From Octopus vulgaris (taxonomy: Eukaryota): 64,000 bases of DNA. Below the pieces are notes generated by a model that worked only from the letters and a program-made list of their open reading frames with translations, was not told the DNA's origin and made no database searches. Of the stretch, positions 7,660 through 63,550 are shown piece by piece. Made by a program: the position numbers and the translations under genes. How positions within the stretch are numbered: position 1 is the stretch's first letter; each line of letters opens with the position of its first letter. Location: positions 19,716,001 to 19,780,000 of the forward strand of contig OX597818.1 in NCBI GenBank assembly GCA_951406725.2. Direction: 5' to 3'.

Positions 7660-8615
7660 ACATTTAGAGGATGATAGGGGTTCGTTTCCCTGCTTGCAAT
7701 ATATCGGGTGCAGATTGCATCGATAAACAGCTGGACGAGGCTCCTCCTGCGGTTAAAAAACGGTAGGAACGTCGGTTCCTACGGAACAGCCATATTGAAG
7801 TGGCGGTAAACATTACTTCTCAGTATAGTTACTACTTACATCTCTTTAAGAGATTTTCGAAGTAGCTACTTCGCTTGTTGCAAGATCAGTGACTGACTGG
7901 TACTTATTTTTCTATATATTACGAGCTGGAGAGGATTACTGCTATGGAGGACAAGAATGGAAGGTTCTGTGACAGGGTCCTTTGTCTCTGGCCCTGGTTT
8001 GCTATCCTACTTCAGATACCATCTGAAGAGCAAGAGGGGTTGGAGAGGAAGACCCTGCAGTTGAGCGAATATGAGCAACGATGTAAGGATGTGATGAGAA
8101 AGGTGGGTGTTAGTAACCCAGCTTAATCATCGAGGAAAGGAAAAGCGAGTTGCTGGGCTTTATAGGCTGCCGGGTTCATTTTTTTCTTTTTCATATTCTT
8201 TATTTCGTCTATTTATGGTTTTTGTTTTGAAAAAAAAGTTCTAGTGAAAAGTTTTAAAATTAATTATTTTTATTAAATTATATATAAGTGAATTTTTATT
8301 ATAATCATTCGAATTCATCCAACATTTTGTATTTGTCTGTCTTGTAATGTCCCCATTCTGTTTCGATCCTATGTGATCATAATAAAGAATTCATCTCTAG
8401 CTGACGGGTGTCCACCACTGAGGATGCGCACAAATTAGCTCGGAACCGTACTGTCGTCTGCTAGCATTTCATAGGGGTTCGCTCCCCTGCTAGCAATATA
8501 TATCGGGTGCAGATTGCATCGATAACAGCTGGAAGAGGCTCCGCCTGAGGCTAAAAGTGGTAGTAATGTCAATTTTTACGGAACAGCTACATTAAAGTGG
8601 CGATAAACATATACC
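7660..8615 (+). mobile_element. Decayed retrozyme-like partial tandem with about 460 bp internal insertion
   Basis: Diverged direct repeats about 7674-7812 and 8471-8610; broken hammerhead CTGAGGA...GGAACCGTAC at 8418-8451; homologous to 33990-34230. Confidence 0.7.
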
Positions 8616-8774
8616 TTGCTACTTTGCTTAATGACATTTAAAATTTTTCTGAAAATGAAACAACTGCTTCTTTCAAATATAAGCGAAATATGTTTATAAA
8701 TTTCTATAAATCTTATATACCGCAGCTGAAGTTCCCTAAACCTCATTTGTTACTGGTTTATTTATATATTTTTT

Positions 8775-9140
8775 CGTGGTTCTGCGATAAAAAGCTTGCT
8801 CTTCAACCACATGGTTCCGGGTTCAGTCCCACTGCGTGGCACCTTGGACAAGTGTCTCCTACTATAGCCGCGGGTCAACCAAAGTCTCATAGTGGATTTG
8901 GTAGGCGGAAACTGAAAGAAGCCCCTCGTATATGTGTGCGTATTTGTCCCCTACTACCGCTTGACAACCGATGTTGATGTGTTTACGTCTCCGTAACTTA
9001 GCAGTTTGGCATAAGAAACCGATAAAGTACCAAGCTTAACAAAACAAAAGTACTGGGATCGATTCATTTCCATAAACATTCTTCTAGGCAGTGGTCCAGT
9101 ATGGTCGCAGTTTAATGACTGAAACAAGTAAAAGATAAAA
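8775..9140 (+). mobile_element. SINE family A
   Basis: CCACATGGTTCCGGGTTCAGTCCCACTGCGTGGCACCTTG through GACTGAAACAAGTAAAAG tail. Confidence 0.8.
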
Positions 9141-9649
9141 GATTCTAAATTTCTCATGTTCAAAATAGAAATCTGGAGACCGTTTAAAAAAAGTGGGTGT
9201 AATAAAAAAAAATACGTTTAATACATTTGGGTGTGGTTTGATGAAGAGTTGGTGCCATTTCTATCAGATCGAATGGCGGGATTCTGGTTTAAGCACCCCG
9301 TGTAACTTCTTTTATTTTGGGGAAATTTTCAGAAAATTCTTGCGAATTTGTGTTCTACACACTAGGATTCATACACTTATGCGGAAAAAAATTGTGATTT
9401 AAGCTGTTATCGTTAACACATCTCACGACCACCTGATACCTTCCCCGTTTCTTTTCACTCTGACATGGATTGACGTTTTTCAATGTTTTTCTCCCCATAA
9501 AGACAGTTAATGGAATGGTGATGTACCCAAGAGTGAGATTTAAGCAAAAAGTTCGTACTGTCCCTATTTTAAACTCGGATTTAAGAAAAAAGAATCGAAA
9601 AAGAGTGAATCTTTTAGGATTTATTGGGTCGGGGGTCCCAATAAATCCT

Positions 9650-9815
9650 AATGCTTAGCGGTCCGTCTTCACGTTCTTAGTTCAAATTCCACCGAGGTCG
9701 ACTTTGCCTTTCATCCTTTCGGGATCGATAAAAAAAAGTACCAGCTGAGTACTGAGGTCGATGTAATCGACTTAGCTCCTCCAACGAAATTTCTGGCCTT
9801 CTTACGCTAGTAGAT
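9650..9815 (+). mobile_element. SINE family B (Meta-domain-like core), partial
   Basis: GAGGTCGACTTTGCCTTTCATCCTTTCGGGATCGATAAA..GTACCAG core shared with more than 10 copies. Confidence 0.75.
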
Positions 9816-60330: not shown

Positions 60331-60974
60331 GATAAGTATGTCTCATATATATATATATATATGTATGTATGTATGTATATGTATGTATGTATGTATGTAT
60401 GTATGTATGTATGTATGTATGTATGTATGTATGTATGTATGTATGTATGTATGTATGTATGTATGTATGTATGTACATCCGTGTGTCTTTGTATCTGTTG
60501 TCCCCAAACCAAAACATTACAACCGATGTTGGTGCGTTTACGTCCCCGTAAATTAGCGGGTTTGGCAGAGACCGATAGAATAAATACTACGCTTACAAAG
60601 AATAAGTCCTGGTGTCGATTTGTTCGACTAAAACCCTTTAAGGCGGTGCTCTAGCATGGCCGCAGTCAAATGACTGAAACAAGTATAAAAAGAAACGAAT
60701 ACGACAATCTTCATCACAGATTCAGTCTATGAAATTTCACACAGACGGCTTTCGTCAGAGAATCAGATGGCTTTTGGTTATTCAGTGACAGAACGAGGAA
60801 TAACGTGGAGAAAGGCGCTTTTGATTCTTCAGCCAAAATATATCACATTTCCCTAAAAATACCTTATATAAAACCTGCAAACCTGTAAAACTTCTAGAAT
60901 AATTGAATAGAAGATGGGTGTCACACGAGTGTCATATAAATGAGTCTAACAGGTTTTTTTGGTGCTGCTTCTGT

Positions 60975-61315
60975 TACTGTTGTTGTTTTTGTTATTGTAG
61001 TTGTTGTTGTTGTTGTTGTTCTTCTTCTTCTTCTTCTTCTTCTTCTTCTTCTTCTTCTTCTTCGTCTTCTTCTTCTTCTTCGTCAACCAGTTGACATCGA
61101 CATGTGGAGGGGGCATCCTTGTTTTTGTTGGGGTAGTAGTAGTAGTAGTAGTAGTAGTAGTAGTAGTAGTAGTAGTAGTAGTAGTAGTAGTAGTAAGAAG
61201 TAGTAGAAGAAGAAGAAGAAGAAGAAGAAGAAGAAGAAGAAGAAGAAGAAGAAGAAGAAGAAGAAGAAGAAGAAGAAGAAGAAGAAGAAGAAGAAGAAGA
61301 AGAAGAAGAAGAAAG
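60975..61315. repeat. (TTG)n(CTT)n ... (GTA)n(GAA)n microsatellite cluster
   Basis: Directly visible. Confidence 0.95.
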
Positions 61316-63503
61316 GAAGTAGGTGGGGGGGATTGAAGAGGAGGAGGAAGCGTGGGAGGTTAAGAATTTTCACCACAACCTCTAACAGAGCTGCTTACAC
61401 CAACTGCCACAACCGCTGCCACTGCGACCACCGCCATCACCTGTATATCTACACTCCCAAATGTACAAAGCAGTCCAGGTGTTAATTGGTGCCGTTATAC
61501 AGAATACTAGATAAACACACACAAACACACACTAATATTTGTATTAATATCTATCTATCTATCTATCTATCTATCTATCTATCTATCTATCTATCTATCT
61601 ATCTATCTATCTATCTACCTACCTACCTACCTATATATATATATATATATATATATATATATATATATATATATATATATATATTTGTGTGCGTGTATTT
61701 TTATTCTTTTACTAACACGAATATACACACACGTATATATGCATATCTATCTATCTGCCTGTCTATCTAGCCACGTGTATGTGAGTGAATGTTCGAGTGT
61801 GTGCATGTGTATTTATGCATGTTTGTAGGTGTATATACACGCTCGTTTACCCACGTACATCCCTCTATGTGTGTGTATATGTATGTTTGCGTGTCTGTAT
61901 GTGTGCGCGCGCGCGTATCGTAGTGCAAGCGCGCAAGTGTTAGAAAATCGGCGTCAAACAGGTTTCGCAACGCTCTGCTCTTGTATTTATACAGCAGACT
62001 TAAGAAAGATAGGAATGGTTAACCACATTTCACAGATGTTATTGTTTAACCTCCAGATCAGCAACTTAAAGAGTAAACTTTTATGATCAAAGTATTTCAA
62101 CAACTACCATTCATTCTAAATCCAAACAGGATAGTGTTATAGAAGTGCTATTTAACCTTCATTTTCAAAGATAACAGGCTGTAATTTGATGAAGATTTGG
62201 TTGCTATTTCTCGCAGACCGAGCGACCATATGTAGGCTCTCCAAAAGTTTTTCCTGCAGATATGCGGTGGAAGTAGGTTTGAAAAAAAAATGCAGAGAAC
62301 GGTTCAAGTCAGTTTTAAGCCCTAAAAAGCAAATTACTATTTGATTCCTTAGCTGATACCTTCAGCGCTACCTGTTTATAACTCCTATGCTAAATTGGGA
62401 AAGGATACATTGGAAAAATGTACTTCTGAGTTCAAATCCCGCCTGAGTCATTTTCTCAGGGCGAATACATATAGTACCAACCCAGAGCGGTGAATTGGCG
62501 GGACGTTGGCTCATCGGAGATGCTTTGGTTTGGAGCCATTTCGATTCATTGTATTCGGAATTCAAATTGCCGTTCCGAAAAAAAGGGTCGGCGCGATCCA
62601 GTAGAAGACAGTGACAGAGACAAAAGGTCTTTAAGCAAGTGCTCAAGTATTTCAGCTGACAGTTTCCCATGCCTGCCCACTAGCTCAGCTAGTAGGAAAG
62701 GTAACAAGGGAACTACACGTCTTGTGCATTCAACAACGAACGGCGATCTATCTATCTATCTATCTATCTATCTATCTATCTATCTATCTATCTATCTATC
62801 TATCTATCTGTCTGTCTGTCTGTCTGTCTGTCTGTCTGTCTGTCTGACTGACTGTCTGTCTGTCTGTCTGTCTGTCCGTCTGTCCGTCCGTCCATCTGTC
62901 CGTCTGTCCGTCTGTTTGTCTGTCTATCTACCTATATATCTATCTGTTTGTCTGTCTATCTACCTATATATCTATCTGTCTGTCTGTCTATCTGCCTGTC
63001 TTTCTGATTGTCGGTCTGTCTGCTTGTCTGATCATTTGTGTGTGTGTGTATGAGAGTGTATTAATGTATGTGTGTGTGTGCATGTGTGTTTGTGTATGTG
63101 TGTGTGAGTTGGTGGCATCCATCAGTCATGAAGACCACGGGGAACAATCGTAGATGCAGAAGTGTCAGAGATGTAAAAAAAACTTCTGAAATTTTGACGT
63201 CCTGTTTTCGTCTACCAACCGCGCTTGCAATCATACGCACGCACGCACGCACGCACGCACGCACGCACGCACGCACGCACGCACGCACGCACGCACGCAC
63301 GCACGCACGCACACACACACACACACACACACACACACACACACACACACACACACACACACACAAAACTCGCTGTTCCCCATGTAAATATCGATTTATC
63401 TGATACGAGGGTTGGCAGACATCGGCACGGATCAACAAACAGTTTGTTCGTTGAAATTATAATGAAGGGCAACGGCTCTTGTTAGATTCATCGGATCAGA
63501 TAC

Positions 63504-63550
63504 TTCTGGGCTGACGAGATACAGCATGTCTAAACACCGGTGTCCCAAAA
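63504..63550 (+). ncRNA. Degenerate hammerhead (G12 mutated)
   Basis: GGG CTGACGA GATA-CAGCA-TGTC tAAA CACCGGTG TC^CC; flanks GATTCAT/ATGAATC pair. Confidence 0.55.

Follow-up and report, generated by a model that had tools for sequence, protein, structure and literature searches.

Hammerhead motifs with palindromic helix III in a 64-kb window of Octopus vulgaris: probable non-autonomous retrozymes and short Penelope-like element ends

Introduction

Non-LTR retrozymes, whose monomers are abundant as circular RNA, carry type I hammerhead ribozymes in non-coding tandem units some hundreds of base pairs long with a GC content of at most 50%, and are dispersed as monomers to multimers alongside Penelope-like elements (PLEs). 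Two accounts (Cervera and de la Pena 2020, PMC7229834; bioRxiv 10.64898/2026.07.22.740005) give mussel units of 350-390 bp and report two families for mussel or axolotl. Minimal hammerheads are also described from PLE pseudo-LTRs (Cervera and de la Pena 2014, PMC4209133; Lunse et al. 2017 via PMC6765202), where helix III is palindromic, A9 is followed by an additional base and positions U3-A8 co-vary; they occur as thousands of dispersed single motifs of several families and as opposite-strand pairs 100-700 bp apart. PLEs of the Neptune/Nematis type (PMC8557442) and Poseidon PAc (PMC11167929) form partial tandems with an inverted 5'-truncated arm, bear an optional tail at one end and insert at AT-rich or microsatellite targets. 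Two internal reverse transcription (RT) start sites are also described (PMC8557442; PMC11167929), and a cysteine linker lies between the RT and endonuclease of Neptune/Nematis elements. PLE-driven mobilisation of retrozymes has previously been argued from co-occurrence and phylogeny.

Here we analyse a 64-kb stretch of the Octopus vulgaris genome (the window), whose repeat families, together with the intact PLEs found elsewhere in the genome, show these structural features and are known here from genomic sequence. They differ from the mussel and axolotl retrozymes, as far as the portions cited describe them, in having more families and core variants, one unit of 589 bp with a long helix II, and flanks of TA repeats with no visible TSDs; the PLE end signature of two fixed ends and asymmetric inverted pairs is likewise not among the retrozyme features given there. 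Compared with the hammerheads of PLE pseudo-LTRs, octopus palindromes reach 10 nt, and U4C and 10.1-11.1 mismatches are family-wide. Unlike Neptune/Nematis PLEs, the window families encode no protein; the cysteine linker is found in the intact octopus elements. Cephalopods are not named in the portions cited of the pseudo-LTR accounts, the main text of the 2026 curated Octopus vulgaris repeat annotation is silent on ribozymes, and our literature search found no earlier cephalopod report; these families may nevertheless be listed in supplementary files to the de la Pena papers or in the repeat library for O. vulgaris.

Results

Hammerhead motifs in the window were scored with a descriptor comprising a type I core, helix I of at least 4 bp, helix II of at least 3 bp and a palindromic helix III, tolerating an extra base after A9 or a mismatch at 10.1-11.1. 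All sites listed in the initial annotation are present, and five of the ten fit the descriptor: 10331-10365(-), 28095-28121(+), 34132-34168(-), 36180-36210(-) and 55255-55334(+). When the dinucleotides of the window were shuffled locally 200 times, none appeared, which upholds the claim that the motifs are not due to chance. Three of these five need the tolerated extras, and two carry U4C; a stricter descriptor gave three palindromic matches in the window against a shuffle mean of 0.005. The remaining five sites are damaged or half copies. The sites at 8418 (changed core, 3' helix I strand missing) and 60310 (3' half only) had correctly been called broken and half. Helices I and II are decayed at 45434, although sister copies are intact, and the core at 54656 is damaged. 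The core given as 63504-63550, as if unbroken, has U in place of G12. No hammerhead family was among the 150 of 250 Rfam matches listed for the window, where microsatellite matches predominate. The seven helix III palindromes are as first reported, and in computed folds their self-dimers are far more favorable than their hairpins. That each helix III has its own palindrome stands for these seven, but genome-wide the palindromes are common to different families. A further candidate, absent from the earlier list, lies at 5476-5506(-), with a U3-A8 core and a 4-nt palindrome; a similar motif and downstream flank occur in one genome sample (L107).

All window motifs belong to dispersed repeat families of the 2.8-Gb genome. 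The same descriptor applied to 60 evenly placed 10-kb pieces outside the window (600 kb) gave five matches, or 1 per 120 kb, against 1 intact motif per 13 kb in the window; adding the U3-A8 core to the descriptor raised the sample density to 1 per 50-67 kb. The window is thus several times richer in hammerhead repeats than the genome overall. The proposed density of about one motif per 7 kb does not describe the genome, where the sample gives 1 per 50-120 kb; it was overstated because dead and half copies were counted in an unusually rich window. Three exact patterns together match about 26,000 times genome-wide. The pattern with the 6-nt palindrome of family F36 (families are named by approximate position in kb) has 13,092 matches with several helix II types. 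For F28 and F45, abundance is taken from pattern counts: 6,768 matches to the exact F28 core (control, 0) and 6,305, from several families, to the core with the 8-nt F45 palindrome (control, 27). Positions 3-8 are C-G or U-A in 98 of the first 100 of the 13,092 matches (by eye) and in about 90 of the first 100 of the 6,305. Between families, cores are kept, helix sequences differ yet still pair, and positions 3 and 8 co-vary, which argues for selection on the fold; covariation within F34 gave no signal (an equal or higher score came from 80 of 500 shuffles).

Four families, F10, F34, F36 and F55, consist of non-coding tandem units of 352-589 bp (351-360 bp for F34), with 0.1 to over 4 units per insertion arm. 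F36 is present as an insertion at 35955-36461(-) of 1.42 units of 360 bp, with its 3' end on a TA repeat and a canonical core at 36180-36210 (predicted cut 3' of 36180); the genome holds 1,251 candidates at 96-99% identity. The F10 copy (10252-10582(-), ends approximate) has its core at 10331-10365 and a predicted cut 3' of 10331. Its family has units of 352-354 bp, a C.A mismatch at the helix II base and 469 first-look candidates, of which 40 scored at 91-96% identity, self excluded. F34 is an old family (512 candidates, about 74-90% identity) with a copy at 33978-34215(-), whose core at 34132-34168 has an extra base after A9, and a copy at 8393-8610(+) with a broken hammerhead at 8418-8455. 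Position 7660, which opens the range first annotated, marks a fragment of this family (7664-7813(+)) that contains only the part 3' of the hammerhead. F55 has units of 588-589 bp and 1,080 candidates, and all 40 scored copies are 100% identical over 161 bp. In the window, its left arm (54361-55011(-)) spans 1.1 of the 589-bp units, has a damaged hammerhead at 54656-54735 and lies head-to-head with a right arm (55009-55535(+)). The right arm ends on a TA repeat and bears an intact U4C hammerhead at 55255-55334, with a helix II domain of 61 nt and a predicted cut 3' of 55334. The 3' end of an older F55-related family, 75% identical, lies at 6694-6888(+), with no hammerhead seen there. Head-to-tail arrays reach 3.85 units in F36 and more than 4 in F55, the two families in which full multi-hammerhead tandems were seen. 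By unit structure, F10, F34, F36 and F55 are likely non-LTR retrozymes, with many dispersed copies and autonomous PLEs in the same genome.

Tandem units were not seen for F28, F45, F60 or F63. F28 is a U-rich element of about 200 bp (28031-28238(+)) that ends on a TA repeat and has a minimal U4C hammerhead at 28095-28121, with a predicted cut 3' of 28121; it probably represents a PLE's 3' end or some short derivative. The F45 copy (45409-45548(+), decayed hammerhead at 45434-45477) lies between TA repeats, while the F60 hammerhead half (60310-60321(-)) stands at the start of a 5'-truncated element beside a TA repeat. F63 (63369-63700(+), ends approximate) is an old family with 88 candidates at 71-85% identity; its window hammerhead, at 63511-63544, is the one without G12.

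The families had been described as independent. Flank comparison instead links F10, F34 (its copies at 34.1, 8.4 and 7.7 kb) and F36, which have in common a downstream module and a unit of about 355 bp. Compared directly, these downstream flanks score z <2.5, and the link passes via an L030 family and F22. The latter, the 3' module and tail of an F36-related family, is present as two copies of about 155 bp without a hammerhead, split by a microsatellite (22490-22870(-)). The idea of a conserved promoter-like box upstream was set aside: F10 with F36 scored (z 5.5), and the other nine of ten pairs did not. On these sequence comparisons, the three families look related. Predicted F36 and F55 circles are 62-65% paired, with z of -3.9 to -5.3 against 30 mononucleotide shuffles, a weak control. 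Among the four runs analysed of 24 listed, F36 pieces and their head-to-tail joint occur in contigs of presumed-RNA runs. The same joint is present in a large run without a label and in the genome itself; assembled contigs carry no information on RNA ends, strand or level. The F22 junction matches loose ends among the presumed-RNA run contigs.

Insertion ends were mapped at loci that were the best BLAST matches, with overlapping loci counted once; this choice biases the examined loci toward young copies. In F36, ten separate insertions supplied 17 arm 3' ends; every one of these maps to unit positions 179-181 or 222-228 and adjoins a TA repeat, and all seven inverted pairs combine one end of each class. 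The 17 arm 3' ends of F55 fall at 197-212 (12), 297-317 (4) and 390 (1), and its five inverted pairs each join one end at 201 to a longer one, so that one short and one long end are found in 12 of 12 head-to-head pairs. F10 also shows two classes of ends. The tail measures about 45 nt in F36, 55 nt in F10 and 110 nt in F55. The 5' ends of F36 and F55 are scattered, and the cut site is the 5' end in only 1 of 34 arms. These young families thus carry the PLE insertion signature of fixed 3' ends, optional tail, 5' truncation, inverted arm and AT-rich target, and their two end classes match the optional tail and the two internal RT starts of PLEs (PMC8557442; PMC11167929). Array-specific variants are common to the units of one insertion, with unit differences of 1.3-1.8 within and 5.8 between insertions for F55, and 7-8.8 within and 11.2-11.7 between for F36 (2-4 arrays per family). 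This homogeneity is compatible with a linear multimer or local duplication as well.

A tblastn search found no PLE coding sequence (RT and GIY-YIG ORF) within the 64-kb window. Elsewhere in the genome, 9,433 candidates were found, and the two that were read have intact 811-aa frames with RT, a CX4CxxC linker and a GIY-YIG-like domain. RVT_1 scored above its cut-off and GIY-YIG below it (E 0.088), and a PDB search with the protein gave no match. These elements can be assigned to the Neptune type by motif; their 3' UTR contains a U3-A8 hammerhead whose palindrome is 6 nt long, and they terminate at TA/CT repeats. Two of the 60 genome samples contain 3' ends of the intact PLE in truncated form. 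Flanks of the two intact copies (one family) and six fragments gave no clear match to the window families, apart from one weak, AT-rich score of the intact copies with F34 (z 4.8), and BLAST with the intact copies gave no non-SINE match to them.

Discussion

Taken together, the motifs probably represent several dispersed families with type I hammerheads of palindromic helix III. These are likely to be retrozymes of the non-autonomous kind, along with short ends of PLEs, inserted by Neptune-type PLEs. Family structure, copy numbers and end anatomy agree with the initial view of a large, diverse retroelement population with PLE/retrozyme-type hammerheads. A tandem locus would be transcribed, and two hammerheads, paired via the palindrome, would release a monomer for circularisation. 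The PLE RT/GIY-YIG protein would cut a TA repeat, and reverse transcription would have an internal start at either of two fixed sites, which lie downstream of the cut site by some 180-310 nt, and would read round through the hammerhead, which would account for copies longer than one unit. Both ends of the break would often be primed, one from each start site, and most genomic copies would be decaying end products with a single hammerhead.

U4C occurs in F55, F28 and many F45 copies, and the 10.1-11.1 mismatch in F10 and F45. U4C is reported to lower hammerhead activity considerably in vitro (PMC3088659), and several abundant families are expected from their sequences to carry slow cores through U4C or the helix II base mismatch. 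A bolder version of the preferred reading, which we advance tentatively and as a whole consider somewhat less than evenly probable, is an active radiation of circular-RNA parasites. A Neptune PLE dimer would copy one circle by rolling-circle reverse transcription from two internal starts, priming the two ends of the cut TA repeat; the downstream module of F10, F34, F36 and F22 would act as a transferable signal by which the enzyme is hijacked, and the weak cores would be protein-assisted ribozymes. Its element of current activity rests on the identity of F55 copies across chromosomes.

A less likely account, to which we give roughly a one-in-three standing at most, takes the template to be an uncleaved linear multimer, with the hammerhead a passenger or acting late or with protein assistance, and the PLE protein needing the downstream module alone. 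Hammerhead mutants of one reconstituted PLE (anole, Poseidon PAc) left insertion in vitro unchanged, so cleavage was not required there (PMC11167929); the rarity of arm 5' ends at the cut site, the weak-looking cores of abundant families and tail-bearing pieces lacking a hammerhead (F22) point the same way. Such pieces are, however, accounted for by 5' truncation, and the retained cores, paired helices and 3-8 covariation between families speak against a passenger. We think it improbable that every motif is the 5'-truncated pLTR end of an autonomous PLE with no separate non-autonomous element: the short, U-rich F28, F45 and F60, for which no tandem units were seen, could plausibly be such ends, and the intact PLE does leave truncated 3' ends in the genome samples, but the head-to-tail non-coding arrays of F36 and F55 and the 351-360 bp repeat of F10 and F34 do not fit.

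Spread as satellite or MITE-like DNA, by unequal crossing over or cut-and-paste with incidental hammerhead-like folds, is very unlikely. Local duplications are present, and the hammerhead lies within a 130-140-nt hairpin resembling terminal inverted repeats; it does not bound the unit but lies inside it, and we rejected the MITE reading of the hairpin. Copies on many chromosomes have fixed 3' and variable 5' ends, a polarity that largely refutes DNA-level spread. It is also improbable, to about the degree of the pLTR-end account, that every family uses its palindrome as a private code for pairing and so avoids heterodimer cleavage with other families. The seven palindromes are more stable as self-dimers than as cross-dimers, and the related F10, F34 and F36 have three different ones, but any palindrome by construction pairs best with itself; moreover, one 6-nt palindrome is common to F36, the autonomous PLE and several helix II types, and the 8-nt palindrome to F45, F60 and others.

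The basic biology is already described, and the octopus families confirm and extend it without constituting a new system. Retrozymes and PLE hammerheads are extended to the genome of a cephalopod, in which the motifs number about 25,000 or more, and the base-precise PLE-type ends of the young families provide direct anatomical support for PLE-driven mobilisation. These ends also supply exact candidate RT start sites alongside predicted cut sites; if the circular-RNA parasite reading were true, how animal retrozymes move would become directly testable in vitro.

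Hammerhead motifs and repeat families

All 10 hammerhead sites listed in the initial annotation are present in the sequence of the window, which has 38% GC with abundant microsatellites and SINE-like repeats and comes from an assembly of 2.80 Gb in 227 contigs, about 30 of them at chromosome scale. A strict type I descriptor, requiring a canonical core with at least 4 bp in helix I and at least 3 bp in helix II, matched three times, each time with a palindromic helix III; 200 local dinucleotide shuffles averaged 0.085 matches (0.005 palindromic). When an extra base was tolerated after A9, a feature described as typical of hammerheads in Penelope-like elements (PLEs) (PMC4209133), there were five matches in the window and none in 200 shuffles; this relaxation was chosen after inspection of the window, and the shuffles control for chance and not for that choice. 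The five matches, at 10331-10365 (-), 28095-28121 (+), 34132-34168 (-), 36180-36210 (-) and 55255-55334 (+), represent F10, F28, F34, F36 and F55, families named after their approximate window position in kb. The remaining five sites on the list hold motifs that are damaged or reduced to a half; the hammerhead at 63511, for one, has lost G12. An additional candidate with a U3-A8 core, missing from the original list, lies at 5476-5506 (-). The motif set is real, non-random and biologically coherent.

Every listed site is a member of a dispersed repeat family. First-look searches of the genome returned at least 469 candidate copies of F10, 512 of F34, 1,251 of F36 and 88 of F63; F55 has at least 1,080, and the 40 that were scored were all 100% identical. 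Unit lengths are 352-354 bp (F10), 351-360 bp (F34), 360 bp (F36) and 588-589 bp (F55). Among best-hit loci, with the window copy included in each set, the core is intact in 12/12 for F10, 11/12 for F36 and 12/12 for F55; F34 and F63 are old and decaying, since few of theirs retain it (2/12 and 1/10). Exact patterns matched the genome 6,768 times for the F28 core (control 0), 13,092 times for a core with the 6-nt F36-type palindrome (control 628) and 6,305 times for a core with the 8-nt F45-type palindrome (control 27), or ~26,000 combined, with helix pairing not demanded and occasional double counts (1 among 100 matches listed for each palindrome pattern). By eye, ~92 of the first 100 listed matches with the 6-nt palindrome have a U3-A8 core, which is thus the majority form for this palindrome among the matches listed. 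The F36 palindrome is not private to that family, as it also occurs in an autonomous PLE and with several other helix II types.

Density and relatedness

The density first proposed, about one motif per 7 kb, describes the window and does not carry over to the genome. Across 60 stretches of 10 kb each, taken at even spacing from 25 chromosomes (600 kb total), the relaxed descriptor found 5 matches (1 per 120 kb) versus 5 in the 64-kb window, which extrapolates to ~23,000 motifs genome-wide (95% range 7,600-54,000). Adding the U3-A8 core gave 9 matches (1 per 67 kb), admitting a 2-bp helix II gave 12 (1 per 50 kb), and the loosest setting gave 20 versus 0.6 in shuffles. By these sampled densities the window, which was picked for its richness, stands at ~3-9 times the genome average. 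Judged against published totals for mussel (~5,000) and axolotl (~120,000) (PMC7229834) and for Xenopus tropicalis (9,000 minimal motifs; PMC4209133), this genome is at the high end and not in a separate class.

The families had also been taken as independent. F55, F63, F28, F45 and F60 showed no link of the kind seen among F10, F34 and F36. These last three have near-equal unit lengths, carry the hammerhead within a hairpin of 130-140 nt that follows a TA-rich stretch, and share a downstream box. Local alignments against 300 shuffles connected each of them with F22 and with a sister family at locus L030 (z 3.3-20.7), and F10 and F36 aligned upstream (z 5.5); direct downstream comparisons among the three scored below z 2.5. 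Most likely the three form one old superfamily or carry a module in common. The L030 sister family (2800-3135) joins an F22/F36-like tail to an inverted F10-like hammerhead half, an arrangement that suggests module exchange or common ancestry.

Insertion anatomy

Insertion ends were mapped with overlapping loci counted once. F36 comprises 17 arms in 10 insertions, with 3' ends at unit position 179-181 (8 arms) or 222-228 (9 arms) after the predicted cut site, all 17 on TA repeats, and 5' ends scattered over positions 39-338. Seven of the 10 insertions are head-to-head pairs, every one combining a short and a long end. In F55 (17 arms in 11 loci, extending to over 4 units), 3' ends fall at 197-212 (12 arms), 297-317 (4) and 390 (1), one 5' end lies at unit position 2, and all five head-to-head pairs combine an end at 201 with a longer one. 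F10 likewise has two end classes. PLE insertions are described as partial tandems that have a 5'-truncated arm in inverted orientation and, frequently, a tail at one end only, and Neptune PLEs as having a microsatellite bias (PMC8557442); in an anole PLE the tail is situated between two internal reverse transcriptase (RT) start sites, and both strands of the target undergo cleavage and extension (PMC11167929). F36 and F55 resemble PLEs in their inverted arms, variable 5' ends, fixed 3' ends of two classes and TA-repeat targets, and the evidence for PLE-type insertion is unusually clean.

Units within one insertion differ less than units of separate insertions and have array-specific variants in common, including in the inverted arm at locus L032. 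In the few arrays available, this pattern fits copying round one circle, and a linear multimer would fit too.

Candidate partner and proposed mechanism

A palindromic helix III favours cleavage as a dimer, and animal retrozymes, short non-coding tandem repeats bearing a type I hammerhead, give rise to circular RNA. Predicted self-dimer energies for palindromes of 6-10 nt are -8 to -17 kcal/mol, versus essentially no hairpin. The hammerheads of the window families would cleave themselves, after which the monomer would be circularised and the circle copied by rolling-circle RT, with a Neptune-type PLE as the putative mobilising partner. Assembled contigs from four runs (three presumed RNA, one unlabelled) cover pieces of F36, and those of three hold its head-to-tail joint; such contigs show neither transcription nor circles. 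The U4C change that dominates in F28 and F55 reduces in vitro activity yet was viable in a viroid (PMC3088659), and the anole PLE hammerhead is protein-dependent yet dispensable for insertion in vitro (PMC11167929).

PLE RT fragments are present in the genome samples, and one of them returned 9,433 genome candidates, many with 811-aa open frames. No PLE coding sequence was found in the 64-kb window. The two PLE loci that were read encode RT, followed by a CX4CxxC linker and a GIY-YIG-like domain, downstream of a frame of >300 aa that has no Pfam match, and their 3' UTRs carry a U3-A8 hammerhead with a 6-nt palindrome followed by a TA/CT repeat. By motif, the linker points to the Neptune/Nematis clade. 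The UTRs of these two intact loci gave no convincing match to window families. In the intact PLE at locus L119, the upstream frame (3-998) overlaps the RT frame (827-3259) in a different reading frame, which suggests a frameshift or an intron.

Non-LTR retrozymes have already been described (PMC7229834), and their PLE origin has been published, with no mollusc sampled in the portion of the preprint available (bioRxiv 10.64898/2026.07.22.740005). Literature searches at the level of main texts turned up no paper on hammerheads in cephalopods. For O. vulgaris, the repeat paper reports 31 PLE families with recent activity, and a term search of its main text found no ribozyme, hammerhead or retrozyme. 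The families reported here are new members of an already described kind of element.

Other features of the window

A decayed LINE with RVT_1 and zf-RVT matches, not a PLE, occupies 850-3173 (-), and an apparently intronless open frame at 18190-18717 (-), ~170 aa long, encodes an Hsp20/alpha-crystallin domain (E 2e-20). The foldback element at 24245-24602 has a U-rich PLE-like 3' end beside TA repeats; in copies of its family at L052, L066 and L086 the two halves of the hammerhead core are both retained, ~30 nt apart and with their order swapped, and helices I and III do not pair. A MITE-like family, which combines long terminal inverted repeats with an internal run of telomere-like hexamers, has rearranged copies at 13614-14374 and 58349-58700 and was found in 5/60 samples. 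Long inverted repeats within 2.5 kb are numerous across the window (for example 11462-11968, 12172-12410, 15405-15818, 33016-33358 and 40855-41482) and, if transcribed, would be a potential source of double-stranded RNA.
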